Shown here in pieces: positions 17,226 to 60,740 of a DNA stretch of 64,000 nt (positions are counted from its first letter, which is position 1; every line of letters begins with the position of its first letter). The notes under the pieces are model-generated. The model made no database searches, was not told the DNA's origin, and worked only from the letters and a program-made list of their open reading frames with translations. This DNA is from Anaerolineae bacterium. GTDB lineage: Bacteria > Desulfobacterota > Desulfobacteria > Desulfobacterales > ETH-SRB1. The position numbers and the translations under genes were made by a program. The stretch lies in NCBI GenBank assembly GCA_035529315.1, contig DATKWZ010000016.1, positions 88,464 to 152,463 of the forward strand, written 5' to 3'.

Positions 17226-17255
17226 AAGATTCTCGTTGATGGTTGCTGTAATCCT

Positions 17256-18155
17256 CTAACCCTCTAACCCTCTAACCCCTGTTAACAGTTTCAATGCCTG
17301 CATATATTTTTTACGTGTATTTTCAATTACTTCATTCGGGAGATTGGGCGCCGGCGGCTTTCTGTCCCAGTTTATGGAAATCAGGTAATCTCTAACATAT
17401 TGTTTGTCAAAACTTTTTTGCGAACCGCCTGGTCTGTAAGTCTCTTTTAACCAGAATCTTGATGAATCAGGTGTCAGCACCTCATCAATAAGGATTATGT
17501 CTTTACCAACGCGGCCGAATTCAAATTTTGTGTCTGCAATTATTATCCCTTTTTTATCAGCCAACTCAACACCTTTTTTATAGATTGCGATGCTAAGCTC
17601 TTTAACCCTGTTTGCATCTGCCTGCCCTATTCTCTTTGCGGTCTCTTCAAAATCTATATTTATATCATGGGTGCCTTTCTCCTCTTTTGTTGAAGGGGTA
17701 AAAACAGGTTCGGGAAGTCTGTCTGATTCTTTCAGGCCCTTAGGAAGCTTTATGCCGCAAACACTTCCTGATTTTTGGTAAGACAGCCAGCCTGATCCGG
17801 ATATATATCCTCTGACTACACATTCGACAGGAAGCGGCTCTGCTTTTTTAACGAGCATGCTTCTTCCCCGAAGTATTTCAGCATAAGGTTTGCATACAGA
17901 AGGATATTCATCCACATTGCTGGTAATAACATGGTTGGATAAAACAGACTCCATTACCTTAAACCAGAAGAGCGAAATTTGTGTTAGAATTTTTCCTTTT
18001 TCAGGAACAGGCTCCGGCATGATAACATCAAATGCGGAAATTCTATCGGTCGCTACCATTAAAAGGCATTCATCAAGGTCGTATATATCCCTCACCTTAC
18101 CGGTTTTTATTAAATTTAATTCAGGGAAATTAGTTTCAAATACTGTTTTTTCCAC
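17256..18155 (-). CDS. purC: phosphoribosylaminoimidazole-succinocarboxamide synthase (long form)
   Basis: [26 protein letters not shown] and [10 protein letters not shown] are SAICAR synthetase motifs. Confidence 0.95.
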
Positions 18156-23050: not shown

Positions 23051-23146
23051 AAGGGGCAAAGGGTTCGAGGTATTTTACTTGAACCCCTGACCCCTTTAAT
23101 CCTTATAATCCTACCAACTCTTTTGGAGATGATCCTTAATTATTAA

Positions 23147-23186: not shown

Positions 23187-23263
23187 CGGGACGTGGCTCA
23201 GCCTGGTAGAGCACAGCGTTCGGGACGCTGGGGTCGCTGGTTCAAATCCAGTCGTCCCGACCA
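23187..23263 (+). tRNA. tRNA-Pro (anticodon CGG)
   Basis: Cloverleaf: CGGGACG / TG / GCTC-AGCCTGGTA-GAGC / A / CAGCG-TTCGGGA-CGCTG / GGGTC / GCTGG-TTCAAAT-CCAGT / CGTCCCG-A-CCA. 77 nt. Confidence 0.93.
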
Positions 23264-42960: not shown

Positions 42961-43035
42961 CAAATGGCCTATAGCCATTTACCTTTAGCCAATAGCTATT
43001 AGCTGTTAGCTAATGATAAAAGTGAAGCTTTTCTT

Positions 43036-43113
<78 letters not shown>

Positions 43114-43220
43114 AATAAAGTCAAGGGGTTACGAACAATTAACAATCCCTTTTTAAATGGGTAAAATTCAAATTCCAACCTCATTTCCAACCTATAAAAA
43201 CAATTTGTGGGTAATCAATT

Positions 43221-44054
43221 ATGGCAACCTACAGAAGAAAAAAAGATAGTGACACATGGCATTCGCATAAGGAATGCTCTAACTGGCCCATATCGGATTA
43301 TCAAGAACCAACAAGATATTGCAAAAAGTGTAACGAGTGTGTAGCTCTGGAGAAATTTGACAAGCAAGCACAAGATTTGCATGATACATCACCGCTGAAA
43401 AACATCCCGCATTGGTATATAGACTTAAGGTTTGATAATACTTTTAACGCTGATCCTAATCATATTTTAAGTCTTGAGACATACTGGGAAACAATAAGAT
43501 CATGTTCCTATATTTCGGCAGGTTATTATCGTCCTCATGTAAACTTAACACAAGGCTCTTATAGTCACAATAAAGGAACAGACGGTAAAGGAACAAACTG
43601 GATAGATTCACAGGATAACAATGAACTCATTGAATATTGGCGATTTCACAGCAACGGTCAATTTGTGCATTTCCTTTCAATTGAGGCCGAAAAGCAAAAC
43701 CAAATTGGAATCAATTCCATTAATAATACTATCAGAGACATTTTTAACTTTGCTGGCACATTAGCACAACATCTTAATGCCACCGCCTTTATTAAAATCC
43801 GAATAGTAAATATAAAAGGGTTCGTTCTTTATCAAGACGGGGGGTTACCTGTGTTTATTAATTCTTACCCAGCCTTTGAAGATCCTTGTCTTAATCCGAT
43901 AAAGCTGGACAAGACAGCCCTAACCTCTAAAGATATGGATAAACTCGCACGGGGAGCCACAGCTTCGATTTTTAAAAGCTTTAACGTTAATAATATCACA
44001 GAAAAAACTTTAAAGAAAATACAAAAAGATTTAAGGCCCCGCCATCTTGCTTAA
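43221..44054 (+). CDS. hypothetical protein with N-terminal Cys/His-rich motif (island cargo)
   Basis: 277 aa. The N-terminus is WHSHKECSNWP...YCKKCNEC. I recognise no family for the rest. It is followed by a strong terminator. Confidence 0.6.
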   Translation: MATYRRKKDSDTWHSHKECSNWPISDYQEPTRYCKKCNECVALEKFDKQAQDLHDTSPLKNIPHWYIDLRFDNTFNADPNHILSLETYWETIRSCSYISAGYYRPHVNLTQGSYSHNKGTDGKGTNWIDSQDNNELIEYWRFHSNGQFVHFLSIEAEKQNQIGINSINNTIRDIFNFAGTLAQHLNATAFIKIRIVNIKGFVLYQDGGLPVFINSYPAFEDPCLNPIKLDKTALTSKDMDKLARGATASIFKSFNVNNITEKTLKKIQKDLRPRHLA

Positions 44055-44094
44055 GATTAACCATCTCACTTATTTTGAAGGCCAGATAATAAAA

Positions 44095-44131
44095 CCCGGG
44101 CTCCATCACTGGAATCCGGGCTTTGATTTTT
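44095..44131. terminator. bidirectional rho-independent terminator between convergent cargo genes
   Basis: aaaaCCCGGGCTCCAtcacTGGAATCCGGGctttgattttt: an 11-bp stem with one mismatch. A-run on the left and T-run on the right. Confidence 0.7.
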
Positions 44132-44152
44132 AGGCTCGCCTATTGTGATCTG

Positions 44153-44938
44153 TTATTTTTTAACCTTCCTCCTGAACCTTGAAAAACCAAACAAACCAGA
44201 ACCTACAAGAAATATTGTGGCGGGTTCGGGCACCGGAGTGCCTGCTGCTACTCTTACCAAGTCAATGGACTCAGATCCAAAATAGGAAGTACCCCAACCA
44301 CCATTATAGGCATAATGCCAGAATGATATATTAACTCCACCAATAGAAGTGATCGCTGGTAGTGTTAATAGTGATGAATTGTTCCATAAATATTCAATCG
44401 TGTTGCCTTCCTGTATAATATCTATATCTGCTGATCCTGCTTGAGGAAAATAATCACCACGTATATAAACACCTTCTCGATATCTACCACCCACAGAAAT
44501 AAGCCCTATTCCGAAATCCATAGCCCATGGATCACAATATCCTATTGCGGTTAAAAATTTGTTCTGTGTATCAAAAAGCTCTATAAAAACAGCTTGCATA
44601 GCAAGAACCGTCTCTTGCCCTTGGCTGTTTTGGGAATCCCATGAAATATTAAAATCTATATGGAAATCAGAAAGCGGGGAAAAAGTTCTTGAAAGATTTA
44701 CTATACCCCAAGGAGTAACAGGGCCAGAACTTACATCAATATCCTGGACATCTGTAACAATAAGGTTTGTGCCTGATTCACTATAATCCCAACCCGCAGC
44801 ATTCTCAAAAGAGATTGTCCAAGCTGGGCCTAAAACCCCATTATTAAAATCATCTTCAAGGATAAGAACTGCCTCCGAAGATCCCACGGAACCTATCACA
44901 ATCAATATTGCGGAAAAAAACACCCAAAATTTTTTCAT
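44153..44938 (-). CDS. PEP-CTERM-anchored secreted protein with LamG/jelly-roll-like domain
   Basis: Signal peptide MKKFWVFFSAILIVIGSVGSSEA. DDFNNGVLGPAWT. C-terminal VPEPATIFLVGSGLFGFSRFRRKVKK, which is a PEP-CTERM sorting signal. The start is moved to ATG 44938 after GGGAGGAAAcgaaca. Confidence 0.8.
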   Translation of the reverse strand: MKKFWVFFSAILIVIGSVGSSEAVLILEDDFNNGVLGPAWTISFENAAGWDYSESGTNLIVTDVQDIDVSSGPVTPWGIVNLSRTFSPLSDFHIDFNISWDSQNSQGQETVLAMQAVFIELFDTQNKFLTAIGYCDPWAMDFGIGLISVGGRYREGVYIRGDYFPQAGSADIDIIQEGNTIEYLWNNSSLLTLPAITSIGGVNISFWHYAYNGGWGTSYFGSESIDLVRVAAGTPVPEPATIFLVGSGLFGFSRFRRKVKK

Positions 44939-45007
44939 TGTTCGTTTCCTCCCATTTATATATTTCGGTACTAACAAAGGAAGTAACAAAGCAAAATCGC
45001 CTGTATT

Positions 45008-45367
45008 TTATTTTTTATACCCTTCCCGCCTCCAGTTTTTATCATAAAAGGTTTCTTTGCCATCTTGCCTTTTAATATATCCGGTTCGGTTTCCGTTTTG
45101 GTCATAAGTTGTGCCGGTGTTATTATCCCAAACAGTTTTGCCGGTTCTGTTTTGATCTTGATCGTATTTAACAACCTCGTCATCTTTATAAATGCTGTGG
45201 CCGGTTCTATTCCAGTTTTTATCAAAGTGTGTTTCTTTGCTGTCCTCAATAACTGTATAACCGGTCAAATTGTGTTGCTGGTCATATTGCCTTATTGTTT
45301 CACCTGCAAAAACACCTTCGGCACAAAAGAAAATCATTAAAATAATAAGAAATAAAAACTTTTTCAT
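45008..45367 (-). CDS. small secreted protein made of five ~20-aa YD-like repeats
   Basis: Signal peptide MKKFLFLIILMIFFCAEGVFA. It is followed by 5 repeats of the form x[YF]D[QK]xxNRTG[YHK] (YDQQHNLTGY, FDKNWNRTGH, YDQDQNRTGK, YDQNGNRTGY, YDKNWRREGY). SD cAGGAGGtcgcggc. Confidence 0.7.
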   Translation of the reverse strand: MKKFLFLIILMIFFCAEGVFAGETIRQYDQQHNLTGYTVIEDSKETHFDKNWNRTGHSIYKDDEVVKYDQDQNRTGKTVWDNNTGTTYDQNGNRTGYIKRQDGKETFYDKNWRREGYKK

Positions 45368-45393
45368 GCCGCGACCTCCTGAATTATCTTAAT

Positions 45394-45422
45394 ATTATAA
45401 TCTCATTATCAGGTAAAAGCAA
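45394..45422 (-). promoter_or_regulatory. sigma70-type promoter for the YD-like / PEP-CTERM cargo operon
   Basis: The minus strand reads TTGCTT-N17-TATAAT, ~25 nt upstream of the ATG at 45367. Confidence 0.5.
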
Positions 45423-46021
45423 TTTTTTAACCTGCTATAACTATAAAATAACCCTTTTTATCGAAAGAAAAAGATAATTTCAGCCAAAACATCAAAACCA
45501 CCTTTTCCTAAATACATTTTTTACGCCATAGATATTCTGTAATCTCAATAGGTTGGCTGAATCTGAACCCCCGATTTAACCATATTTCTGTAATAACTAT
45601 CATAATATCGGAAAAACGCCGGAAAGCCTTTATTGATAAGGGGTTACAGTAAGTTTATATTCACTTTTAAGCCTGTTTTTAGCTAAACAATAGCTGCAAT
45701 CAGTCCGATCTTATTAAAAAACAGTAGTCAGCAAGCATATAAGACTTAATGGCTTGATATTACTGAATAATAAGCTTGTTTTAGGGCTGTAATTTCCGGC
45801 ATCCCTACTAACCTTGCAGATATACTAAAACATCATAATTACAGCATGTTAAACGTGATTTTGAATTGACTACAATACAAAGCAAAGACAGCAACCGCCA
45901 GATTGACTACAAACAGAATTTTTATAAAAGAAATGGCATTAAAACAAGGGGTTGCGACAAGTCGATTTTTCAGAAATTGCCGGAATTTCGAGGGGTGCAG
46001 TATTGCAAGATGTGTGTCAAG

Positions 46022-46050
46022 TTGACAAAAATCAAAGGGGTGGGTATATT
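46022..46050 (+). promoter_or_regulatory. near-consensus sigma70 promoter firing into an ORF-less segment
   Basis: TTGACA-N17-TATATT on the plus strand. The -35 hexamer is also an iteron-like AGTTGACA. Confidence 0.45.
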
Positions 46051-47332
46051 ATATATTTATATATCAAGTAGTTATAATGTATTGTTTATTTTGTAGTCAT
46101 GGAATGCCTGAAGGTCAAGACGGGTTATAATATTTCATTAACCACCTGAACTGCTATCTATAGCAAGTATATGGTTCTTTAAGTGTAACCATAATACCCA
46201 TAAGGTTTTACCCTTGGACTCGCTCTGTCCCTGTTGTATTGATACCCTCCAGTATCAAAGCCGACCGACCATGCCTTGATATGTTTATTATCTCTGCATC
46301 CTGCCCTTGCCTGTCTGTTGCAATCATTAAGCTGTATAGCCAGGGACAGGCTGCTTATAGGCAGGCATAAAGGGTATATACCTATTGAGTTTATATATGC
46401 CTTTTGTTTATTATTGATCTTGTTATCAAGATAAAGACAGATATAATAAACCTGTTTAACCTTCTTGATCACAGATAAAAAGATCACCTATCCGGCATCT
46501 TTTTCCCAAAAAACCAAAACAGTAAAATTTATCAATTATCACCATGTTTTTACATAGCTATCAAACTAACTTATTATAATTGTTTAGTATAATAACGACA
46601 AGCCTTGTAAAGCCTTGCTATACCTATAATCCGCTGTAAAGCCTTACAATACATAGTATTACAAAGGAATGCTGAAGACAAAGACTTTATAAGGGATAGG
46701 TAGTAATATGTTTAATGATATTGACAAGTTACAAAGCAGTAAAATAAAGCATTTGCCGTCCGATAACAGCTATTATGTAAACTTTCGTAAATTGCAGGCT
46801 GCTAAACGTTGAAAATAAAGGCTTTGGGAAAGTGCTTATAATGTCCGATAAAAAAACAAATAGCCGTTTATTTTATTCAGGTCAACGAATATTATGCAAT
46901 ACAAAAAACTAAGATCACAAATATAAAATGTTTCTTTCCGGTATCACTACAAGGTTAATGACGTAAGGATAAAAAAAACTAAACACAATATATTGATATA
47001 TCTTTAAATCAGTTACTATATATTGTGTTTTTGTGTGCCAAAAGTCGCATAATTAGCTATAATTAAGTATAATTATAACTGTTATGATGGGTTTTGCCTA
47101 TCACACCCTTTCAAAGTGTTTCAAAATGAAACATAAGGTTGTATAAGATTATAAAGCAGGATTCGGGCATATTTTAAAAATATCTTCCATATCCTGGCAG
47201 GAAAATATAAATATTAATTTCGGGAGTTTTTAGCAGGAAAACATGTTAACCGCGATTTGTTTTTGTCCTTGCGGTAAAATGTTATAAAATTGATATGTTT
47301 TGCTACGAAGATTCGAATCATAAAATACAATT

Positions 47333-47525
47333 AGTTGACCAGTTGACAACCCCCAGAGGGGGGGGTTGTCAACAACTGGTTTGGAATAAAAAAGTTGACT
47401 AAAATTCTTGTTATTATTTAAAGTAAAAACAATATGTTATATAATACCAGTTGACTAAAGTTGACCAGCTTGTTGACTTGTCAACTCGGTTGACTCAGTT
47501 GACTAAAAAGTTGACTAAAATTCTT
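47333..47525. repeat. iteron cluster / putative origin of replication of the element
   Basis: Eleven GTTGAC hexamers in ~190 bp: nine direct and two inverted. A 13-bp perfect palindrome, GTTGACAACCCCC-agaggg-GGGGGTTGTCAAC, lies at 47342-47373. An exact 21-mer, aaaaagttgactaaaattctt, occurs at 47389-47409 and again at 47505-47525. Confidence 0.75.
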
Positions 47526-49410
47526 ATCCGTTTGCGGTCATAAATCCTGATTGCGTGAGTTTGTTTTTTTGACTTAGCAAACCATCTTTAATAGCCTTTT
47601 TACGGATACGGCTGATATATGCCTTGTCAATTCCTAATATATCTGTAATTTCTGTTTGTGATAATCCTTCGTCAAGCAATTTTAATATTTCGGTTTTAGT
47701 TTCCGCCTTAATATTTCCGTATGTCCAAATATGGTTTTTATTCTCGTCAAGGGTAAGTTTAAACTCTTGATCCGATAATAAATGCAAACATTTTGTATCA
47801 ACTCTATTTTTACCAAATTGCAATATAAAACGTGCCCCATCTTCAGGGACATAATTATAAGGAGCTTTCAGCATTATACTTGTGTCAAGGTTGTCCTCAC
47901 GTGCGGAAGTCCCCCTTTGCCGTCCATCTTTAGATACATGGTGCAATAAAATTGTGCTGATTCCACAAAATCTTAACTCTAAAAGCCATTGATTTATAAT
48001 ATCCCAATCCTGCTTAGCGTTTTCATCAAGACCAGGCGCTAAGCTTGCGATATTGTCAACTACCCACAATTTGACATGCCTGCTTATTAAAATTTCCTTC
48101 ATAAGGTTTCGCCAGTCAACATCAACAAGTGACGCCCTATGCAGTCCCATTGAATTTGCATAAGCATCAGAATAAAAAAGCAGTGGATTTTTACGGGCTG
48201 AATGAAGTTTTAAATTTTCGATTCGATCCCGATCGTCTCTGATTGTCATTTCACCATCCAGAAACAAGCAGGAAACTGATTTTTTGCACTCCCAAGGGCC
48301 AAAATTTGAACCTCTTGAAACTGCGTCCAGTATTCCAAGGGCAAGCCAGGTTTTGCCGCATCCCCTCCATCCTGATATAAGATTAATCGAATCTTCTTTT
48401 AACCACGGAAATAAAAGCTCCTGCTTTTCCGGCACGTCTATTTTATAAAATTCATTTGCTGATAATATTATATCATTAATAGTGATTTTTTTAGGCGGTT
48501 CATAAATTTCGGCATTTTCAATTAAAATTGAAAACCGCTCCGCTGCTTCGTCCAAGTCGTCAAAACTGTCAAGCCAGTCAGAAAAATCGCCCCCCTCAGA
48601 CAATCCAGGCAATTCCAGTAACTGAATATTCTTTGCTATGTTTTTTATATTTTGAAAAACTTTTTCAATATGCTCGCATCCGGGTTTGTCATTGTCTGGC
48701 ACCAGTATAACTTTCTTGTTTTTGAAATATTGATTTAAATCCTCAGACCAGTTCCCGGCCCCGGCAACATTGCAAGTACCTGTGAAATTCAGCCTTCCCG
48801 CATTATTGCAATCTTTTTCACCTTCAAAAACAAAGACGGTTTCTGCATCAATAACCTTTAACAGGTTGTAAGGCACTTTCGGTTTAATACCTTTAGTTGA
48901 CCATTTCAGCCCATCCGCACTGCATTGTCTGAAGGTCTTAGGCTCAAACCTACAGTTGTAATAAAGAACTTTGCCATTTGCGTTTACATAAGGATATTTT
49001 TCAATCGGAGATCCCAACTCGTAATGCTCAAACGGGTTTGTTTTCTTGTAAGTAGTTTTGACCAACTTTAAACCAGGCATGTATCTTTTAAACAGCTCCT
49101 TGATATTCGTATCTGCAAGCCAGGCATGAAAATCAACTATATCGCCCCCTTTTTCATTACATTGACGGCACCAAAATCGTTGTTGATCTGTTCTAAAAAC
49201 AAAACGATCATTTCCGCCGCATTTAGGGCAAGGCCCGCAAAGGCTGTTTTCCGATTCTTTGCGTAAGTTCTTAACAGCCTCCGGGATGCCCGGAAGCATT
49301 GATTTTAAGGCATCAATACTGCCTTTGCTGTTTTGCACAAAATTTAAAGTCTTCTCTTCCGGATTTTCGTCAAAATTAAAATTTAATTTTTTCACATTAT
49401 TTTTTTTCAT
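47524..49410 (-). CDS. bifunctional primase / replicative helicase-like ATPase (Zn-ribbon + TOPRIM + RecA-like AAA_25 + C-terminal HTH)
   Basis: Zn ribbon CPKCGGNDRFVF...WCRQC. TOPRIM VFVFEGEKD ... LVPDNDKPG. Walker A SGWRGCGKTW. Walker B KLWVVDN. C-terminal LSQTEITDILGIDKAYISRIRKKA. The start is moved to ATG 49410 after gtGGAGGttataatt. Confidence 0.88.
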   Translation of the reverse strand: MKKNNVKKLNFNFDENPEEKTLNFVQNSKGSIDALKSMLPGIPEAVKNLRKESENSLCGPCPKCGGNDRFVFRTDQQRFWCRQCNEKGGDIVDFHAWLADTNIKELFKRYMPGLKLVKTTYKKTNPFEHYELGSPIEKYPYVNANGKVLYYNCRFEPKTFRQCSADGLKWSTKGIKPKVPYNLLKVIDAETVFVFEGEKDCNNAGRLNFTGTCNVAGAGNWSEDLNQYFKNKKVILVPDNDKPGCEHIEKVFQNIKNIAKNIQLLELPGLSEGGDFSDWLDSFDDLDEAAERFSILIENAEIYEPPKKITINDIILSANEFYKIDVPEKQELLFPWLKEDSINLISGWRGCGKTWLALGILDAVSRGSNFGPWECKKSVSCLFLDGEMTIRDDRDRIENLKLHSARKNPLLFYSDAYANSMGLHRASLVDVDWRNLMKEILISRHVKLWVVDNIASLAPGLDENAKQDWDIINQWLLELRFCGISTILLHHVSKDGRQRGTSAREDNLDTSIMLKAPYNYVPEDGARFILQFGKNRVDTKCLHLLSDQEFKLTLDENKNHIWTYGNIKAETKTEILKLLDEGLSQTEITDILGIDKAYISRIRKKAIKDGLLSQKNKLTQSGFMTANG

Positions 49411-49553
49411 AATTATAACCTCCACACGGGTCAGTTTTTGGGGTGGGCGCGCAAGTGTGTGGCCTTACGTGCCCATTAACGCCGCCGGGCGAACCCCAAG
49501 AATTAATTGCTTTGCCTCCCGTGCGGGATTAGCTAAAATTCAAATCTTGAATG

Positions 49554-49922
49554 TCAATTTTTAGAAATTATTAAATCCATATTCAGCACAACCGGGGACG
49601 CATTTGCTTCTTTCGCTTTGAATTTCGCCCATACAGTGCTAATAATCGAAGCATTGAACCTGTCACGGCTTGCATTTCCGACACTTGATTTAAAAGAAGT
49701 ATGAATAGCCGTTGCATTTGCAGGAGTATAAAATGTTTCGTCAGGTGTATCGCCCACTTGATATGTCACTGCTACGTTGCCGCCGCCGGAAGCATTAAGA
49801 TCAGCAAAATATTTTGTTTTCGGCCCACATTTGCCAAGATATATTGGAGTGGCCAGAACAATACTCGCATTCTTTGCAATTGTTCTACTTGAAAATATCG
49901 TTATTTTTTCTGTAAGTCCCAT
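49554..49922 (-). CDS. hypothetical protein, 122 aa (island core)
   Basis: ORF with SD aAGGAAAGGAAAatttccatt-ATG. No family recognised. Confidence 0.55.
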   Translation of the reverse strand: MGLTEKITIFSSRTIAKNASIVLATPIYLGKCGPKTKYFADLNASGGGNVAVTYQVGDTPDETFYTPANATAIHTSFKSSVGNASRDRFNASIISTVWAKFKAKEANASPVVLNMDLIISKN

Positions 49923-50077
49923 AATGGAAATTTTCCTTTCCTTTTGTTGTTGTTGTTGTGACGAACCGAACCAGAAACAGTCCGATTCGTCACGGATGGG
50001 CGGTCATTCGGAGGTGAACCCTAATCGCCGCCCAAGGAGGGATAATAAACTGGCCGAAGTCCCATCCCACGTTCAGA

Positions 50078-50266
50078 TTATAGTCTATTTTTTAGGCGCA
50101 AAATCAGGCATTGCCCGCTCTTTGTTTCGACTTTCACCCCTGATTCAAAGGCAACAAAGTCAAGGATATCGTCCTGCAATTCAAGTTTTTCGACTAAAAG
50201 GTTGACGTCGATTTTGTAAATTCCGGCGATTTTTTCGAGCTCAAATTTGTTTAGATTATAAAGCAT
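50078..50266 (-). CDS. hypothetical small protein, 62 aa
   Basis: The track ORF starts at 50284. ATG 50266 (MLYNLNKFELEK...) is preceded by aAAGGAGAttgagt. Confidence 0.45.
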   Translation of the reverse strand: MLYNLNKFELEKIAGIYKIDVNLLVEKLELQDDILDFVAFESGVKVETKSGQCLILRLKNRL

Positions 50267-50414
50267 ACTCAATCTCCTTTGCATTTTAAAAGTGATAGGG
50301 AGAGGCCGTTGACGTATGAAAACGGCCCAGCCCTTTTAAAGGCAGCAGCTGTAACGGCTCCCACGAACAGAAACAGCTGCGCCCATTGGCGCATCCGGTA
50401 CGCCCATGCATAAC

Positions 50415-51548
50415 TTATTTGCCTTGGCCGATCATCTGGCCGATTTCATAATCGGCTTTTGATTCCTGCATTTTGGGCATTGTCAAAATCTGCCTGCGCC
50501 GTATATCGGCCAACTCCGTGACTTTGCGGCTTATGCCTTTTGCTTTTTCTTCCTGAAGCCAGTTTGAAGCTGTCTTTGCTTCCTCGCTGAAATGCAAGAG
50601 GCAAGCATCTTCAAGAGCCTTCAACTCCGGCAAATCCTTTGCTCTCTGGATATCTTCGGCAACCGCTTTTAAGCTATTCATGGCAGTAATGTTCCTTTCG
50701 GTTTTTATAGTGCCGGAATATTTGCCTTTCAGACGAGTCAACAAACTATCCCATGATTCAATCCGATCCGCCAAACCCACATCTATTGCTTGCTCCCCGA
50801 TAAAAAGACGCCCCTGACCCATTTGTTTGTCCGCAACATCGGCAGTCACGCCCCGGTTTCTTGCAATGTCCTGGATCATCAGTCCATATAAAAAATCAAG
50901 TTTGCCTTGGATATTTTTTTCATCATCTTTACTCAATGGGTTGTACTCATTGCCAACTGCTTTGAATTTGCCAGCTTTAAGCACCGTGGGTTTGAGTCCT
51001 TTTTGTTCGTATGCTGCTGAACGATCCATGTGCAGACCGATAATGCCGATACTTCCAGCTTGCGCCGATTTGTCGGAAATAATTACTTCGTGTGCTGCGG
51101 AAGCAATAAAATACGCCGCTGAAGCTGCGAGGCCATTGCAAAAAGCAATTATTCGCTTTTTAAGCCTTGATTCATAGATTAGGTTAGTGAAAACCATCAA
51201 ACCACTTACGTTGCCCCCTGGAGAATCCACATCAAGTAAAATCGTTTCAACCGCCGGATCTGCAAGAGCTTTTTGAAAATCCCTGCCCGCAATTTCGTAA
51301 CTCGTGCCACCACTTGCAGCCGCTATAATATTCATTCTTTTTGCCAACGTGCCGTAAATTTTTATAAATGCAATGCCGTTTTCGACCTTATATCTATTTT
51401 CCGCTTGGCCCGCATCTGCCAGCGATAGTTTTGCTTCTATATCCTTCAATTCGCCAAGCTGTTTAGCTTCAACCACTTGTAAAATTTCTTCCAGTTTGTC
51501 AGGGGTGATAGCCCAGGCAGAATTAATCATCAAATCATATAATTGCAT
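50415..51548 (-). CDS. S49-family serine peptidase (phage prohead/head-maturation protease type) with C-terminal extension
   Basis: VDSPGGNVSG and CNGLAASAAYFIASAA (Ser nucleophile context), followed by a ~100-aa helical tail. SD tAGGAGGttttaaaaatt. Same family as SppA and the lambda gpC-type proteases. Confidence 0.8.
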   Translation of the reverse strand: MQLYDLMINSAWAITPDKLEEILQVVEAKQLGELKDIEAKLSLADAGQAENRYKVENGIAFIKIYGTLAKRMNIIAAASGGTSYEIAGRDFQKALADPAVETILLDVDSPGGNVSGLMVFTNLIYESRLKKRIIAFCNGLAASAAYFIASAAHEVIISDKSAQAGSIGIIGLHMDRSAAYEQKGLKPTVLKAGKFKAVGNEYNPLSKDDEKNIQGKLDFLYGLMIQDIARNRGVTADVADKQMGQGRLFIGEQAIDVGLADRIESWDSLLTRLKGKYSGTIKTERNITAMNSLKAVAEDIQRAKDLPELKALEDACLLHFSEEAKTASNWLQEEKAKGISRKVTELADIRRRQILTMPKMQESKADYEIGQMIGQGK

Positions 51549-51563
51549 AATTTTTAAAACCTC

Positions 51564-52043
51564 CTAAATAAAATATATTTCAGCCGAAGCCTTTAACGGC
51601 AGGCGTTCGCAAAGTTCTTTGTCTTCTCCTATTAAGGCCGTCCATTGTTTATTAAGATTTTCCCTCATCGCTATAAGCCCTTCGCGGTCTTTTATTGCTT
51701 TTAAAACCCTTTCGACCGCCCGTGCCTTTCTGTCTTCAAAGTTTTTTGCCTCTTTCTGAAGTTGGTAAAAATCCAAAACACAATTTAAAACGGATATTTG
51801 CCGTTCCAAGTCTTTCAATTGTGTTTCAATCTCAATTTTCTCATTCTCCAATTTTTCAATTTTCTTCTGTAATTTTTCAACCTGCAATTTATTATAATCG
51901 AAACTTAAGCGGATATTTTTATATTCCGATTCATCCGAAGCCGCCTCAAGCTTAACCTCAAGCGCATTTACTTCCGTTTGGAATACTTCCAGTTCAGCCG
52001 TAAGCTTTTGGATCTGTTTTTCAATAGGTATGTTATCCTTCAT
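51564..52043 (-). CDS. coiled-coil protein, 159 aa
   Basis: Heptad-rich sequence (LTAELEVFQTEVNALEVKLEAA..., KLQKKIEKLENEKIEIETQLKDLERQISVL). Confidence 0.6.
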   Translation of the reverse strand: MKDNIPIEKQIQKLTAELEVFQTEVNALEVKLEAASDESEYKNIRLSFDYNKLQVEKLQKKIEKLENEKIEIETQLKDLERQISVLNCVLDFYQLQKEAKNFEDRKARAVERVLKAIKDREGLIAMRENLNKQWTALIGEDKELCERLPLKASAEIYFI

Positions 52044-52061
52044 AATTTTTTCTCAAACCCC

Positions 52062-52643
52062 CTATTCATTTATTTTTTTCAAAAGAGCAACTTTTTTCTC
52101 GACCAGTCTATCCTTACTGTCCTGTGCGTCTTCAAAGGAAAGAGAACACCAAGTTTTTAAATCGCCTTTATCGAAAGGCTTTCCCGGCCTTTTTAATTTC
52201 TGAGATTGTGCAAGCTGCTGATCTGCCCGCATTTCTGAAAGATTTTTCTCCAAAGTTCTTAAGGCATCTTCTCGAAGTTTTAAAAAATCCTCTTCGGTTT
52301 TTACAGCCACCACTGCCGCCTCAAGGCGTTTCTCGTGGATTTTGCAAACCGCATCATAGCAATCTTGCAAAAATTTGTGAAAGCTGCTGTCCGAACTTCG
52401 GGAAGCAAGCAAATTCATTCTTTCAAGATTGAGACTATAAATTTCAATAAAAAATTTACCCTCATCAATACCGCACCGGCCAGACTCGCGGTTGTCATAG
52501 AAAATATGCTGGCATGTGTCGGCTAATTTTTTTTCGCAGTAATATTTATTATGTTTAGACAATTTCACACCTGGCAGCCCCTTTTGCCGCCGTGCTTCGG
52601 CCTGTTCTTCTTCCGTCAAAACTCTTATATTAGGCTCATACAT
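52062..52643 (-). CDS. hypothetical protein, 193 aa
   Basis: Its start overlaps the upstream gene stop (TAATG coupling). No family recognised. Confidence 0.55.
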   Translation of the reverse strand: MYEPNIRVLTEEEQAEARRQKGLPGVKLSKHNKYYCEKKLADTCQHIFYDNRESGRCGIDEGKFFIEIYSLNLERMNLLASRSSDSSFHKFLQDCYDAVCKIHEKRLEAAVVAVKTEEDFLKLREDALRTLEKNLSEMRADQQLAQSQKLKRPGKPFDKGDLKTWCSLSFEDAQDSKDRLVEKKVALLKKINE

Positions 52644-52879
52644 TATAAAACTCCCTTCAAAATTTCATTAATATCAACATTTTTGTATCCTGTCTTTTTT
52701 AAGCTTTTTATCGTCAAGAGCCGCTCAATGGTTGTTTCCGGCCAGTAATTACTTGCGCCATATCGGCCAAAAGACTTAAACTGTGGCACTGGTAGCCAGC
52801 CAGCCTTGACATATCGGGAAATGGTTTTACTGCTCAATCCCGTCATCTGCATCAATTTTTTTGTTCTTAATATCTTCAT
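52643..52879 (-). CDS. MerR/excisionase-like HTH protein, 78 aa
   Basis: LRTKKLMQMTGLSSKTISRYVKAGWLP is an HTH pattern. Confidence 0.6.
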   Translation of the reverse strand: MKILRTKKLMQMTGLSSKTISRYVKAGWLPVPQFKSFGRYGASNYWPETTIERLLTIKSLKKTGYKNVDINEILKGVL

Positions 52880-52928
52880 TTAAAAGTCCAAGTGTAGAAG
52901 TCAAAAGGTCAAATTTTTTTGCCTCTGC

Positions 52929-53120
52929 CTACAGCGCACCGGTTTCGATCTTGTGTGCTTCCATCCAATCAAGAACATCCTGCAATAGATATCTGACTGA
53001 CCGCCCCATCTTCACGTAAGGGAAGCCCCTGCCGCAATGTCTATCGTTGCGCAAGGTTTGCAAGGCACGGCATGTTATTTCGCAGACTTGTTTTTCGTTA
53101 ATATACTTTTTCATAGACAT
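52929..53120 (-). CDS. AlpA-family excisionase / transcriptional regulator
   Basis: YINEKQVCEITCRALQTLRNDRHCGRGFPYVKMGRSVRYLLQDVLDWM is the pattern of phage AlpA/Xis (HTH_17) proteins. It is adjacent to the integrase. Confidence 0.7.
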   Translation of the reverse strand: MSMKKYINEKQVCEITCRALQTLRNDRHCGRGFPYVKMGRSVRYLLQDVLDWMEAHKIETGAL

Positions 53121-53382
53121 TCACCCCATCAAATTTGTTTTCTTTTCTCCCAAAATGATGAAAACAAATGATTGTTTCAATCTTTTTTTGAAGATCACTG
53201 TTTTACTTTGCAATATTTTGGCAGTTGAAAACCTATAAGGCTAATAATATCAAGCAGATAATAGAAATTGAAATAATATAGGGTAAAGCAAAGGAAAAAG
53301 AAGTATGGTATTTTGTCTAAATTAAGGACTGGGGTGTGGTATTTACTAAAAAAATAAGGGGGGAATTTACTTCTTTAAAGGT

Positions 53383-54525
53383 TCACGGTCTTCCGATTTT
53401 GGATATATTTTTTACAGCATCGGCAACGATATTACCGGCCAGATTTGAAGCTGCCACAAGTGTTTCGTCTTGCAGGTGTGCATATCTCTGTGTCATTGCA
53501 GGGCCTTTGTGGGTTAGCAGTTTCTGGAGGGTGTACATATCGACCTTGCCTGAACTGGCAAGCATTGACGCAAAGACATGGCGAAGGCCGTGCAAGGGCC
53601 GGAACTTTGCAGGCAATCCAGCTTTTCTTTTTATCTTATTTATGGGTTTTGAAATATTTACTAACTGCTTGCCCTCACGTCCCGGAAATATAAAAGGGCT
53701 TTCCGTTCGTGGGTGATTTTTAAGCAGTTCTCTTGCGGCATCGTTCAGGGGGATTACTTGATCAGTGCCGCCCTTGGGATCTACAATATTTATAAATCCA
53801 CGGTCAAAATTAACGTGTTCCCATTTCAGTTTCAGCATTTCGGATCTTCTCATTCCAGAAAATAGCGCAAGTTTCATTATAGGCCCAGCTTGCGGGTGTA
53901 TGTCGTTATCAATGGCCTTCAATAAGTCTTTTATTTGTTCAGATGTTAAATCTTCAGTAACCAGGTTTGAGACTGTAGGTTTTTTGATACGGAAGGGAAG
54001 CCCAGGACATAAACCTTTTTTAATACCAAAGTTTGCGATCCAGGTGAGAAGGTTAAGAACATGTTTTACGGTTTGCGGTGATTTCTCTTTTAAAAGCTTT
54101 ATTCTAAGCCGGTCAATATCCAAGGCTAAAATATTTTTAGGTTCGGTATCACCAAAAGGGGCTTTCAAATACTTTTCATATCGGCCTAAATCAGTTTTAA
54201 GACTTTTGCCAGGTGTCCTGCCTTTGATATATTCATCAAAAAGCCTTTGGATTGTCAACTTGTCGGCCTCAGCCTCTTTGAGGGCATGCTCTTGTTTACG
54301 TTTCGCCTTTCGGGTTAATCTTTTGCCTTCGATTAATTCTGACCGTATATGTGCCGCCCTGGCCGGGGTCATGTCATCAGCATATTGACGCCCTGCTTTT
54401 TCTTCAAAAAGTTTGCCTTCCTTTTTATAGACAACATAAAAAACTTTTTCGCTCCCTTTGCCACCGATTCTTTTTGATTCCCGAAAAAATACCCCAGGAT
54501 ATGTTGTTTTTTTTCGCTTTGACAT
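53383..54525 (-). CDS. tyrosine-type site-specific integrase
   Basis: Catalytic residues in context: LFSGMRRSE (Arg), HGLRHVFAS (His-x-x-Arg) and TQRYAH (Tyr). N-terminal SAM-like domain. It lies ~280 bp inside attR. Confidence 0.93.
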   Translation of the reverse strand: MSKRKKTTYPGVFFRESKRIGGKGSEKVFYVVYKKEGKLFEEKAGRQYADDMTPARAAHIRSELIEGKRLTRKAKRKQEHALKEAEADKLTIQRLFDEYIKGRTPGKSLKTDLGRYEKYLKAPFGDTEPKNILALDIDRLRIKLLKEKSPQTVKHVLNLLTWIANFGIKKGLCPGLPFRIKKPTVSNLVTEDLTSEQIKDLLKAIDNDIHPQAGPIMKLALFSGMRRSEMLKLKWEHVNFDRGFINIVDPKGGTDQVIPLNDAARELLKNHPRTESPFIFPGREGKQLVNISKPINKIKRKAGLPAKFRPLHGLRHVFASMLASSGKVDMYTLQKLLTHKGPAMTQRYAHLQDETLVAASNLAGNIVADAVKNISKIGRP

Positions 54526-54804
54526 AAAACCTCCAATATTGTATTAATTGGATTATAATTTTAGCCGGAAACCTGTTTAACCCTCTGTGTTTACATGATA
54601 AATATTTCTTTGGTTTCCGGCTTGCAAGTCCCAAAGTTGGAAAAAGGCGGGAATTACTTTCCAACCCTATTTCCAACCTTTTTTCTATATATCAGAGTAA
54701 AAAAAAGTAAGTCAAGAAAAAAAGAAAAAAATAAATACTGTGATATTAATATGATATTAAGGGGGTTTAGTAAAAGAAGGTAAAAAGAGGTAAATTTAAG
54801 CTTA

Positions 54805-54854
54805 CGGCCTGTCAAGCCGGAGGTCGCGAGTTCAAGTCTCGTCACTCCCGCCAT
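54805..54854 (+). repeat. attR core (orphan copy of the tRNA-Asp 3' part)
   Basis: Identical to 43064-43113. The sequence in front (aaatttaagctta) has no tRNA 5' half. Confidence 0.92.
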
Positions 54855-55249: not shown

Positions 55250-56155
55250 CTACATACGCGCGCCACTCCACCTTAGCTTGGCTTTTAAAACATCAAAATA
55301 ATTCTGATCCGGCATCATTATCATGTTTACAGGGTGAAGCCCTTTTTGAATTATGATGGTATCATTATTATTTATCTCCAGGCCGGCCTGACCATCAAAG
55401 CTTGCAATGATATCTGATGACTTTTCTTCAAACTCGATTTTCATGCATACAGAATCAGGAACTATCAGAGGCCGAACAGTCAGTGTAAAAGGACAAATCG
55501 GGGTAATTATGATGCCCTGGACTTCCGGATGAACAATCGGGCCGCCTGCGGAAAGTGAATAGGCTGTCGAGCCGGTAGGTGTTGAAATAATAAGACCGTC
55601 GGCTCTGTAGGTAGTCAAATAGCGATCATCAATATATGTTTTTATACTTGCAAGCCCTGCAAATGCCCCTTTAGTAATGACTATATCATTTAATGCTGTT
55701 TCATCCGCCAGCTCCCTGCCCTCTCTGATTACTTTGACCTGAAGACGCATTCTGGGGTTTATATCAAACCTGGAGGTTAGAATATATTCGGCAGCGGAAA
55801 AAAGGCTTTCCTCTGCTATTTCAGCAAGAAAACCGAGTTCGCCGAATTTAACCCCTAAAATCGGAATATTCTGATCCCCTATCCAGCGAACAGCTCTCAA
55901 AAAGGTTCCATCACCGCCAAGCACAAAAACACACAACAGATCAGGCGGAGCAAATGATTTGCTTTTGCTTGAAATTTTGCGACTCGGACGCGGGCTTGTT
56001 TCCCTTATAACATCCACGCCTCTTGATCGCAGCCAGGCTTGAAGTTCATCGGCCTTCCTGCCTGCTTCTGCATCCGCTTTTACAAATAGTCCTATGCTTT
56101 TCAAAATATTCGGCCCTTTATTATTGTTGATGAATTCGTAAAAAAACGAATTCAT
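55250..56155 (-). CDS. nadK: NAD+ kinase
   Basis: VLGGDGTFL, NDIV, and TPTGSTAYSLSAGGPIV. The N-terminus is uncertain: ATG 56155 lies inside a repeat hairpin and has no SD. TTG 56104 (MKSIGLFVK...) is an alternative. Confidence 0.9.
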   Translation of the reverse strand: MNSFFYEFINNNKGPNILKSIGLFVKADAEAGRKADELQAWLRSRGVDVIRETSPRPSRKISSKSKSFAPPDLLCVFVLGGDGTFLRAVRWIGDQNIPILGVKFGELGFLAEIAEESLFSAAEYILTSRFDINPRMRLQVKVIREGRELADETALNDIVITKGAFAGLASIKTYIDDRYLTTYRADGLIISTPTGSTAYSLSAGGPIVHPEVQGIIITPICPFTLTVRPLIVPDSVCMKIEFEEKSSDIIASFDGQAGLEINNNDTIIIQKGLHPVNMIMMPDQNYFDVLKAKLRWSGARM

Positions 56156-56321
56156 CAGGTGTTAAGTGTAAAGTGTTAGGTGTTAGGTGGTTAAAGCAAT
56201 TGCCTGTTTAATCATACCCTTAACACTTAACACGGTTCACAAAAAGTGGTTTTTTGACTTTTTACGACGCCATAATATTTAAGTAATCTTCTATAATTTT
56301 ATTGCGCAACCTGTCAATCTA

Positions 56322-57751: not shown

Positions 57752-58252
57752 ATGCAAAAAAAAATATTCTGCCATTTTTGCGGAAACAGGCTTGTTGAAA
57801 AAAGGGTTAATGATAACAAACGGCTCTTCTGTGAGCAATGCAATCAGCCGATTTACGAAAACCCGATACCTGCCTCATGCATTGTTGTAATTGATAAAAA
57901 TGAAAGGGTGCTTCTTGTTAAACGGAAAGTGGAGCCCAGCAAAGGGGTTTGGTGTCTTCCTGGCGGATTCATGGAGCTTGGAGAGACTCCTGAACTTGCT
58001 GCTTTAAGAGAACTCAAAGAGGAAACAGGCCTTTCCGGTCAGATAGAGATGCTTTTAGGTATCACCTCAAACAACAGCCCTCAATATGACACCGTGTTTA
58101 TGGTCGGCTATCTTGTAAAAATCTATTCCGGCATCCTTAAAGCCGGAGATGATGCATCTGAAGCAGCATATTTCCATCCTGATGATTTGCCGGAAATCGC
58201 ATTTAAAAGCCATAAAAAATTCATCAGGATATATTACGCGGCTTACTCATGA
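57752..58252 (+). CDS. NUDIX hydrolase with N-terminal zinc ribbon
   Basis: CHFCGN...CEQC. Nudix box GGFMELGETPELAALRELKEETGL. Confidence 0.9.
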   Translation: MQKKIFCHFCGNRLVEKRVNDNKRLFCEQCNQPIYENPIPASCIVVIDKNERVLLVKRKVEPSKGVWCLPGGFMELGETPELAALRELKEETGLSGQIEMLLGITSNNSPQYDTVFMVGYLVKIYSGILKAGDDASEAAYFHPDDLPEIAFKSHKKFIRIYYAAYS

Positions 58253-58253
58253 A

Positions 58254-58540
58254 AGGTGTTAGGTGTTAGGTGTTAGGTATTAGGTGAACGTCCAACATCG
58301 AACATTGAACATCGAACGTCGAATAATGATGTCGCTCCGCTCCTCAAATTATTCTAAAATCGAATAAAAAAACAAATTTGATACTCGTAACGAAAATCTT
58401 AATTAATTCTTCTGTTTCTTCATCTTTTCCCATTCAACATTCGATGTTGGACGTTCGATGTTCGATGTTCATTTTTTTTAATCCCTCAATCCTCTAATCC
58501 TCTAATCCCCTGACCCCTGACCCCTGACCCCTGATCCCTG
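58254..58540. repeat. composite palindromic array of tandem 7-8-mers filling the NUDIX/pgi convergent spacer
   Basis: (AGGTGTT)x4.7 at 58254-58286. (GAACRTC)x5 at 58286-58323. AT-rich core. Inverted (GATGTTC)x5 at 58433-58470. (TCCTCTAA)/(CCCCTGA) arrays at 58481-58540. Confidence 0.85.
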
Positions 58541-60172
58541 TTACTCTGGCTTGAGTTTTCCGGAAAAAAGCGCGTCAAGGTAAAATTTTGCAATCGGATC
58601 CATGCCTTCAAAACTGTGGGTGCTTTTTTCATTTTTCTTTGCTATTTCATTTCTGATGCCGGATGCCATGGTTTTGCCGAGCTCAACTCCAAACTGATCA
58701 AATGGATTAATGCCCCAGACAAATGCCTCAAAAACCGTTTTAGCCTCATAAAAGGCTAAAAGACGGCCCATGTTTTCCGGCGACAGATCATTTAAGAGAA
58801 TTGTTGAGGAGGGTCTGTTGCCTGAAAAATATTTTGCCCCGTCCTTATCTTTCTTGCCGGCTGCAAGGGCCATGGGCTGAGCAATGAAATTCGCCCAGAG
58901 TTCCTGATGATTGGTAACCCCTTTTGATTTGCAATGATACTGTTCGTATTGCGGCCTGATTGCTCCGATAAAATCGATCGGAAACGCACGCCCCTGATGC
59001 GCAAGTTGAAAAAATGAATGCTGCGCATTTGTGCCGGGCTCTCCAAAAAGAACAACACCTGTGGGTTCATCAAGAATATCTCCGTCCTCGGTCACGGATT
59101 TTCCGTTGCTTTCCATATAAAGCTGCTGGATATGAGGTGCCAGCCTGTGCAATGGAGATGCGTATGGGATAATAGCCTGGTTCTGATATCCCAGGAAGTT
59201 ATTGTTCCATATACCTATCATAGCTGCAACAATGGGGAGATTCTCATGCAAAGGGGCGGATTTCGCATGATTATCCATCTCCTCTGCGCCTTTTAAAAAC
59301 CTTTCAAACCTGTCATATCCTAAAATCAGACTCAGAGGAACACCTCCGACTGCTGAGGTAACGCTGTATCTTCCCCCTATGAAATCGAACATGCGAAAAG
59401 AGTGTAAAACCGAACCGCTGCCCGAATCTCCGGGGCTACCCTTGCCTGTTACTGTTACAAGGTGTTTTGCAGGATCAAGGCCCCTGTCCTTTATAAAGCT
59501 TATTGCAAGATTAGCATTTGCAATGGTTTCAGCGGTTGTATAGCTTTTGGAAATAACTATCCAGATGGTTGTTTCAGGATCAATGCATGAGGCCACTCTT
59601 CCGAAATTGTGGATATCAACATTTGAAAGATAATGGATCTCAATCCCTTTATCCGCATAAGCATACAAGGCATTTGAAACAAACTCGCCGCCAAGATACG
59701 ACCCGCCGATTCCAATGACAACTACATGTTTAAAAGGCTTGCCTGTTGATCCCGTTATTTTTTTCTCATGCACCTTTGAGACAAATTCTTTTATATCATC
59801 TCTGACCTCTCTTATTTCAGGCATTACATCTATATTATCCACAAAAACAGGTTCACCTGAAAAGCTCCTTGATGCTGTATGAAGAGCCGCCCTGTTTTCT
59901 GTAATATTTACCTTTTCCCCGCTTGCCATGCGGTTAAAGTGATGTTTTAATTTTCTTGTCTCGGCAAGCTCAAATAAAAGATCCATACACTTCTCATCAA
60001 CTCTCTGGCGTGAAAAATCATAAAAGATGTCTGCGCCATGCAGAGAAAAATTTTCAAGTCTGTTTTTATCTTTTACAAGATTCCTCAAATGCTTTTCAGG
60101 GGTATCCATTATTTTTGCATGACGCAAAAGTTTTTGCCATGCTAAAACATCATGAAGTTTCAAGGTGTTCAT
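58541..60172 (-). CDS. pgi: glucose-6-phosphate isomerase
   Basis: 543 aa. IGIGGSYLG, FIGGRYS, and PGI signature-like GEPGTNAQHSFFQL. Confidence 0.95.
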   Translation of the reverse strand: MNTLKLHDVLAWQKLLRHAKIMDTPEKHLRNLVKDKNRLENFSLHGADIFYDFSRQRVDEKCMDLLFELAETRKLKHHFNRMASGEKVNITENRAALHTASRSFSGEPVFVDNIDVMPEIREVRDDIKEFVSKVHEKKITGSTGKPFKHVVVIGIGGSYLGGEFVSNALYAYADKGIEIHYLSNVDIHNFGRVASCIDPETTIWIVISKSYTTAETIANANLAISFIKDRGLDPAKHLVTVTGKGSPGDSGSGSVLHSFRMFDFIGGRYSVTSAVGGVPLSLILGYDRFERFLKGAEEMDNHAKSAPLHENLPIVAAMIGIWNNNFLGYQNQAIIPYASPLHRLAPHIQQLYMESNGKSVTEDGDILDEPTGVVLFGEPGTNAQHSFFQLAHQGRAFPIDFIGAIRPQYEQYHCKSKGVTNHQELWANFIAQPMALAAGKKDKDGAKYFSGNRPSSTILLNDLSPENMGRLLAFYEAKTVFEAFVWGINPFDQFGVELGKTMASGIRNEIAKKNEKSTHSFEGMDPIAKFYLDALFSGKLKPE

Positions 60173-60416: not shown

Positions 60417-60740
60417 AATATCCTGTTCTCACGCAAAGGTGCCGAGCCGCTAAAAATATAGTTTTGAGTTTTGAATTTTGAATGCAGGAAAAACCGTTTT
60501 TAATTATTAATTTAACATTCAGAACTCAAAATTAGAAATTGTTCTCTAATCCCTCAATCCTTATATTTCTACCATAATAGTTTTGACTTAAAGTTTCAAG
60601 CAAAATACAAAATCAGGTTTAAACGAAGATTTTTCCCCGGAGTTTTACAAATGCAGATGGTTTATTGCATATTAGGTGCTATCTGATATATTGTAAAATT
60701 ATATGTTGTTATACTATTTAAAAAGGAAATACTCTAATTT

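Follow-up and report, generated by a model that had tools for sequence, protein, structure and literature searches.

Positions 58285-58479 of the 64,000-nucleotide stretch of DNA analysed here (hereafter, the window), which lie between the convergent genes for a NUDIX hydrolase and glucose-6-phosphate isomerase (pgi), probably represent a copy, degenerate and non-autonomous, of a palindromic cassette that is dispersed over many sites. In its intact form, the cassette starts with an A-tract, in many copies preceded by an outer terminal inverted repeat (CATAAGCGCTAAGTTGTTTT...), and an arm of about 4-6 GAACRTC heptamers, carries a gene for a four-helix-bundle protein in its loop and ends with a conserved 3' tail, an inverted arm and a T-tract. 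Comparison of the copies at the sequence level shows that this cassette decays through internal deletions that remove the ORF and leave a hairpin, as in the window copy.

Organisation of the spacer between the NUDIX and pgi genes

The convergent spacer is 288 nt long and is filled by five tandem 7-8-mer arrays and a 40-nt inverted pair. Its features, together with two further array hairpins of the window, are given below, with the strand where one is assigned.

56140-56233, no strand: second array hairpin, with a GATGAATTCG/CGAATTCATC stem (GATGAAYTCG...CGAATTCATC), an AGGTGTT-type array x5 and inverted CTTAACA x2
57752-58252, plus strand: NUDIX hydrolase gene, left convergent neighbour (ORF; PF00293 on the identical product)
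58254-58286, no strand: (AGGTGTT)x4.7, STRR-like flanking array outside the element (repeat scan and L001 ortholog)
58285-58479, minus strand: whole element, probable copy of the hairpin cassette with the four-helix-bundle gene, MITE-like through deletion of the ORF (nhmmer, parent alignment)
58285-58324, minus strand: stem 3' arm in ORF sense, with the (GAACRTC)x5.4 array at 58286-58323 (parent alignment)
58322-58376, minus strand: conserved 3' tail of the cassette (copies and parent alignment)
58377-58433, minus strand: remnant of the four-helix-bundle ORF (alignment to intact parents)
58432-58471, minus strand: stem 5' arm in ORF sense, with the inverted heptamer array x4.4 at 58440-58470 (parent alignment)
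58472-58479, plus strand: T8 tract (A8 in ORF sense), conserved terminus of the element
58479-58508, no strand: (TAATCCTC)x3.8, flanking octamer array
58507-58540, no strand: (CCCCTGA)x4.9, flanking array
58541-60172, minus strand: pgi, glucose-6-phosphate isomerase gene, right convergent neighbour (ORF)
60457-60570, no strand: third array hairpin, (GTTTTGA)x3.9, a loop and an inverted copy, then TCTAATCCCTCAATCC

The ORF-sense strand of the window element is the minus strand, as for pgi, and the family motif GATGTCGCTCCGCT is located at 58328-58341 (plus strand) within the 3' tail. The stretch between the arms is 107 nt long and has a GC content of 30%, against 41% for the window. Arrays of period 7 or 8 with at least 3.5 copies number eight in the window, five of them in the NUDIX/pgi spacer, whereas none was observed in any of the 30 dinucleotide-preserving shuffles of the window that served as the control. 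The spacer is the same to the last base (100% identity) in four independent assemblies of the population, with a single orientation and a single array copy number, and recent mobility or array slippage is therefore not seen.

All the blocks described in the initial annotation are present, bounded by the NUDIX end at 58252 and the pgi end at 58541, and inverted pairs of 7-mer arrays were indeed found to recur, both in the window (56155-56233 and 60457-60570) and in related Desulfobacteraceae. Its description of the arms as near-perfect reverse complements is to be relaxed, as 58285-58324 and 58432-58471 form an inverted pair with 83% complementarity over 40 nt and 92% in two 24-nt sub-blocks. 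The proposed pairing of the outer arrays through G-U applies to RNA of the plus strand and fails on the minus strand. A single long hairpin is predicted for the plus-strand RNA of the spacer (-78.6 kcal/mol, z = -7.1), with the outer AGGUGUU and CCCCUGA arrays paired by G-U; in the centroid structure of the minus strand, the inner arms alone are paired. Since only the inner arms pair robustly on the minus strand, the outer arrays do not constitute an inverted repeat of the DNA, and the reading of the spacer as one giant palindrome is ruled out. What had been described as a single 287-bp palindrome thus retains its inverted arms and is otherwise a nested composite, of which the element constitutes only 58285-58479.

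The dispersed element and its parent gene

The suspicion that the structure belongs to a repeat family and is not a one-off was borne out by a core motif whose exact matches in metagenome contigs number at least 120 and by another copy in this genome. The 108 unique copies among the matches listed have sharply conserved ends (...AAAGATGAACGTCC... and ...GATGTTCATTTTTTT) and unrelated flanks, and the window was matched to a full copy by nhmmer with an E-value of 7.8e-39. The second copy of the genome lies in the aconitase/lepA spacer, about 7.5 kb past the right end of the window (L081:17729-18017); it has different material inserted in its core, and its terminal flank is of the same TTTTTTTCAATCTCTTAATCC type. 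None of the relatives examined shows synteny in the aconitase/lepA region. Further copies were identified by profile search in the relatives L001, L009, L018 and L042. In many copies, an outer inverted repeat (CATAAGCGCTAAGTTGTTTT... / ...AAAACAACTTAGCGCTTATG) is present in addition to the arms. The intact cassette measures about 600-650 bp and whole elements range from 195 to 650 bp, with arms that are 40-nt heptamer arrays placed 107-450 nt apart and that vary in length between copies by whole heptamers (7-nt steps).

An intact ORF of 121 aa is present between the same arms at three loci (L190, L194 and L091), and other copies contain graded C-terminal remnants of 72, 66, 44, 33 and 30 residues. 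The 121-aa protein matches TIGR02436 ('four helix bundle protein', 3.2e-25) and PF05635 (23S_rRNA_IVP, 2e-14), and resembles PDB 2RLD (1.4e-16), an entry with five chains. The PF05635-related family takes in Avd, the accessory protein of diversity-generating retroelements (PMC10053308). The subfamily comprises at least 7,974 related protein clusters (90% identity), most of them on short contigs; the best 120 of these at least 7,974 clusters are all 83-95% identical. The dN/dS values of the intact copies (0.12-0.20) indicate purifying selection and thus a functional protein.

The 'AT-rich core' of the spacer, regarded earlier as a loop or filler, consists of the remnant of the deleted gene and the conserved 3' tail. 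Its opposite strand encodes ...EETEELIKIFVTSIK, and the start region of the ORF is joined to this C-terminal ...EETEELIKIFVTSIK where the sequence between direct repeats (GAAACAGA) was deleted; the stop-codon region was removed by another deletion. In the alignment to intact parents, the window copy retains both arms and the 3' tail; with these kept and the ORF deleted, it is best viewed as a MITE-like derivative. A live short ORF in the core was also considered and is ruled out, because the reading frame is broken differently from copy to copy.

In intact cassettes (L190 455-493; also L091 and L181), AGGAGG precedes a short leader ORF (MNIEHRTSNIEF/C*), which crosses the 5' arm in a frame other than that of the four-helix-bundle gene. 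Translation of the leader would melt the stem and could therefore couple expression of the gene to read-through translation.

The copies are intergenic in 139 of 141 cases, being located between protein-coding ORFs. Where the neighbouring genes are in tandem, the ORF of the element has the same sense as its neighbours in 31 cases and the opposite sense in 3. The ends of the element are asymmetric, the ORF-antisense strand presenting the stem followed by T7-8 and the ORF-sense strand the stem followed by TCTTTT. The orientation bias fits selection against the strong terminator-like orientation inside operons; it also fits a dependence of ORF expression on read-through transcription.

Signs of mobility were examined at the flanks. 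For copies that have the outer repeat at their ends, direct repeats in the flanks score 7.2 when both flanks belong to one copy and 4.1 when they come from different copies (p = 4e-6). These repeats are imperfect, 7-12 nt long and offset from the ends, the window copy has none, and exactly abutting target-site duplications were absent among the copies examined; as a footprint, the repeats resemble a target-site duplication. No transposase or recognised mobility gene was found in association with the element. A search of about 0.8 Mb for outer-repeat pairs 0.7-6 kb apart returned none, and thus no larger bounded element was found there. The arms do not co-vary within a copy (16.5 within versus 16.2 across copies, p = 0.24), that is, the arms of a copy match each other no better than they match those of other copies, and there is thus no direct sign of selection on pairing.

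Heptamer arrays outside the element and in other phyla

The AGGTGTT, TAATCCTC and CCCCTGA arrays that border the element are probably separate STRR-like arrays that expanded in situ. In the corresponding spacer of the relative L001, a single AACACCT unit occupies the place of the AGGTGTT array and GGATTAAGGGATTG that of the TAATCCTC/CCCCTGA arrays, and these single units suggest that the outer arrays of the window were expanded in place by slippage. The TAATCCTC module is also found after other hairpins (60548-60563 in the window; L081 18002-18025) and after the element copies L108, L110 and L136, and the CCCCTGA unit type adjoins many other copies of the element. A total of 325 arrays, with dozens of different units, occur in 826 kb of related contigs. 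Among the arrays outside elements, 19 of 157 lie within 60 nt of element ends, a zone that holds 2.5% of the bases, which amounts to an enrichment of about fivefold; most of them lie elsewhere and their units are very diverse. Protein-level gene remnants beside other arrays were absent in the window and in 80 loci of relatives, and the origin of the outer arrays is accordingly one that we infer. The GAACRTC, AGGTGTY/CCTRACA and GAAYCCTC units are shared with relatives at only 60-77% Pgi identity. Inverted heptamer pairs outside the element number 8 in 729 kb of Desulfobacteraceae relatives and 12 in 762 kb of metagenome loci, with none in 408 kb of outgroup loci.

Several of these arrays merit individual description. 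The array at 56140-56233 has CTTAACAC as its inverted partner, and its hairpin is conserved at the orthologous, divergent NADK/FBA spacer of L001 (13740-14060; 77% Pgi identity), where it is better conserved than the remaining spacer and is adjoined by a truncated arm of the four-helix-bundle element; this hairpin is found after the NUDIX stop of L001 as well. A CCCCTGA-type hairpin at 23058-23115 (GGGGCAAAGGGTTC / GAACCCCTGACCCC), followed by TTTAATCCTTATAATCC, sits between a gene end and tRNA-Pro (23187-23263). At 17244-17280, (TAAYCCTC)x4.4 and then CCCCTG, the same module pair as at 58479-58540, overlap the stop-codon end of the minus-strand ORF 17256-18155. TAACTGA-type arrays (CAGTTATCAGTTATCAGTTA) adjoin an element copy on a metagenome contig (L135, about 5400-5480). 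A (TAGCYAW)x3.7 heptamer array is located at 42986-43011, where it takes up part of the 75 nt that separate tRNA-Val from tRNA-Asp. An integrative element of about 11.7 kb (43114-54804) adjoins tRNA-Asp (43036-43112) at its 3' end, and the cargo of this element includes a tyrosine integrase (53383-54525, minus strand, PF00589), an AAA_25/HTH protein, an S49 peptidase and a PEP-CTERM protein. The sister assembly L081 joins 43113 directly to 54805, with about 50 bp duplicated at the junction, and a JGI contig ends exactly at 54805, the boundary of the integrative element.

A search by tblastn of the plasmids of cultured organisms for genes of the four-helix-bundle family yielded 31 records, mostly from Nostocales and other cyanobacteria. 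Flanking sequences were examined for 12 genes from Cyanobacteriota, Bacteroidota, Chloroflexota, Spirochaetota and Bacillota, with 46 genes as controls. The inverted-repeat scores of the 12 genes range from 10 to 33, against a mean of 8.2 and a maximum of 13 for the controls, with 9 of the 12 exceeding that maximum; heptamer arrays are present in at least one flank of 11 of the 12. In Nostoc punctiforme, (CAATTCG)x4.7 and (AATTGCG)x4.7 enclose the gene as a perfect 33-nt inverted pair, and in 50 kb of this plasmid the two strongest heptamer arrays are the pair around the only such gene. In Euhalothece and Chondrinema, units of the TAACTGR type form the stems around four-helix-bundle genes; they are of the TAACTGA kind that MacGregor (PMC4679880) reported as unexplained repeats. 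A paper stating a general link between four-helix-bundle genes and heptamer arrays was not found among open-access texts.

Four-helix-bundle genes were also noted inside defence and transport operons of plasmids from cultured bacteria (L205, L209, L210, L212, L214, L215, L217). They are placed between cas2 and cas1 in Anabaena and Nostoc, between csx2 and cas1 in Pseudanabaena, between helicase and N6-methylase genes in Chlorohelix, between DUF1156 and HEPN genes in Gloeocapsa, between RND adaptor and permease genes in Chondrinema and, unannotated, between hsdS and hsdR in Monoglobus.

An alternative view of the arrays, both in the arms and in the flanks, is that they are mainly multivalent protein-binding sites, kept for binding rather than for RNA structure, the obvious candidate for the binder being the pentameric four-helix-bundle protein itself. 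The association of gene and array in five phyla with lineage-specific units would agree with this view, as would the conservation of units between genera noted above and the occurrence of about 4-5 units per array, considering that the relative 2RLD was deposited as five chains. A mobile repeat-binding protein has, moreover, been proposed independently (MacGregor 2015, PMC4679880). However, the association is one of sequence, array copy numbers of 3 to 17 do not conform to a strict fivefold rule, and most arrays are far from any four-helix-bundle gene. Binding as the main reason for the arrays is considered doubtful.

Transcript ends, mobility and relation to known systems

It is improbable that the spacer arose on the spot, between the two convergent genes, as a dedicated bidirectional terminator or insulator. 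Such an origin would account for a long, strongly folding stem set between an A-tract and a T-tract and for the T5 runs that flank the stem on both sides in the L001 ortholog. The T8 on the plus strand comes after the stem in the manner of an intrinsic terminator and faces the NUDIX transcripts. However, the sequence belongs to a family with copies at well above 100 unrelated sites, tandem and divergent spacers among them, and has a gene remnant inside. Simple scans of 58100-58700 detected no promoter and no terminator; in place of the compact G+C-rich stem, short loop and T-run of an intrinsic terminator, the T8 follows a 40-bp stem with a loop of 107 nt. The pgi transcript corresponds to the ORF-sense strand, which is without a T-run. 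A role as terminator or insulator, as suggested in the initial annotation, is plausible in one direction only, through the stem and T8 of the plus strand, and the element may have a secondary use as a terminator. In a search of Rfam, the spacer region and the intact element matched no family, and only sub-threshold mir-3047 matches were obtained, on the hairpin at 60461-60532.

The orthologous spacer bears on a further alternative, in which recombination across the inverted heptamer arrays flips the segment between the arms as a switch. The window comes from a member of the Desulfobacteraceae, whose nearest deposited Pgi (77% identity) belongs to an Eth-SRB1 MAG, L001, the only one of the relatives examined that shares the pgi/NUDIX adjacency. 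Its pgi/NUDIX spacer has the same arms and a nearly identical inner stretch (AATAATGATGTCGCTCCGCT..TCAAATTATTCTAAAATC), and the element is inverted there relative to pgi/NUDIX as compared with the window, with the outer flanks co-linear. This opposite orientation, as well as a Logan contig break inside the left arm, would be expected of a switch, but the four assemblies show a single orientation, an adjacent recombinase gene is absent and the core has no promoter-like site in a simple scan. The difference in orientation could be explained equally well by one past inversion across the arms or by an independent insertion of a mobile element, and a switch is judged very improbable.

A REP/BIME-type element moved by a RAYT transposase is hardly credible, since the likeness to REP/BIME/REPIN repeats (dispersed intergenic palindromes, often at gene 3' ends, with possible effects on mRNA ends), which had been noted earlier and does stand, is offset by differences in unit size, architecture and associated gene: the units are of 195-650 bp with arrayed arms instead of palindromes of 20-40 nt, the parent encodes a four-helix-bundle protein rather than a Y1 transposase, and a RAYT was not noticed in the loci examined, which come from partial genomes.

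For the preferred reading, a degenerate copy of the dispersed cassette, the following course of events may be proposed. The cassette would have spread in a transposition-like manner, in which the four-helix-bundle protein may take part. In the 3' UTRs of neighbouring genes, the stem of the cassette would provide dsRNA of about 40 bp as a likely substrate of RNase III, whose cleavage has been demonstrated for the intervening sequences (IVSs) of Coxiella, Leptospira and Salmonella; the window stem with its T8 would face the NUDIX transcript and likely terminate it. The outer arrays would have grown by replication slippage from single units such as those of the L001 spacer.

The wider significance of these observations lies in the link that they suggest between two separate old puzzles, namely the intergenic heptamer repeats of cyanobacteria and large sulfur bacteria (since 1990) and the origin and purpose of the ORF-bearing IVS and its S23p protein (since 1993). 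Members of this one protein family are found inside inverted-heptamer hairpins in at least six phyla, and in the Desulfobacteraceae the cassette has the behaviour of a mobile element, losing its gene and leaving behind hairpins with array arms at the ends of genes. The four-helix-bundle protein thereby becomes a candidate for the factor behind the heptamer repeats, and RNase III processing or termination at operon ends a candidate for their role in RNA. The elements also cause breaks in metagenome assemblies and give rise to spurious calls of small ORFs, and their recognition would therefore improve annotation. The link between the four-helix-bundle gene and the heptamer arrays is the part most worthy of follow-up.

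A broader reading, offered tentatively and as less likely to be right than wrong in its entirety, is that S23p/Avd-like genes define a so far unrecognised class of mobile hairpin cassettes across bacterial phyla. Its stems may be lineage-specific inverted heptamer arrays, and the rRNA IVS may be a cassette that landed in rRNA. Many of the STRR, TAACTGA and Desulfobacteraceae arrays may be cassette stems, decayed relics or landing sites, and the pentameric protein may recognise the arrayed hairpin and help its spread or maintenance.

Among the known systems, Avd of the diversity-generating retroelements is related to PF05635 and forms a pentameric four-helix bundle with nucleic acid and reverse transcriptase as its binding partners, whereas the cassettes are without an adjacent reverse transcriptase, template repeat or variable repeat. 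The STRR heptamer repeats of cyanobacteria were reportedly described by Mazel in 1990. The TAACTGA repeats of Beggiatoaceae, Cyanobacteria and Bacteroidetes are likewise unexplained repeats (MacGregor 2015, PMC4679880). The arrays studied here share with both of these the tandem heptamers of several unit families, the intergenic location, the mixing of units within a spacer and the sharing of units across genera, but the STRR and TAACTGA repeats have been described as direct repeats, with no tie to a gene or to inverted pairing, and are not reported from Desulfobacteraceae.

The element had at first been assigned to no described class; its nearest described kin are MITEs and the ORF-bearing IVSs of 23S rRNA. 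As in MITEs such as Correia/NEMIS of Neisseria, ERIC and Nezha, the window copy is short and non-coding, has terminal inverted repeats and is one of many intergenic copies; an internal deletion of a longer coding parent, the direct repeats that flank other copies and the hairpins expected in read-through transcripts are further points in common. It differs from them in that the parent is not an IS that encodes a recognisable transposase between the same ends, the sole coding parent found being the gene for the 121-aa four-helix-bundle protein, in that its flanking duplications are imperfect (7-12 nt) and in that its inverted repeats are arrays of variable unit number.

The ORF-bearing IVSs of 23S rRNA, known from the Leptospira, Coxiella burnetii, Brucella and Xanthomonas system, were reportedly described by Ralph and McClelland in 1993. 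In Coxiella burnetii, a decaying S23p ORF occupies the hairpin loop of the IVS, which carries tandem GACAGAT heptamers whose number varies by strain and is cleaved by RNase III in the stem (Warrier et al. 2016, PMC4990558). The element differs from such IVSs in its location, since it occurs outside rRNA genes, between protein-coding genes at at least 120 sites (the window copy between NUDIX and pgi rather than in helix 25 or helix 45). Its two stem arms are wholly heptamer arrays, many copies have an outer inverted repeat, ORF-less derivatives are abundant and its RNase III processing is a prediction. Common to both are an S23p (PF05635/TIGR02436) protein encoded in the loop of a long hairpin of terminal inverted repeats, tandem heptamers of variable copy number in the 5' stem region, an ORF prone to reductive decay and a suspected mobility. 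By its architecture and its gene, the element is best described as an extra-ribosomal, MITE-forming relative of the ORF-bearing intervening sequences.
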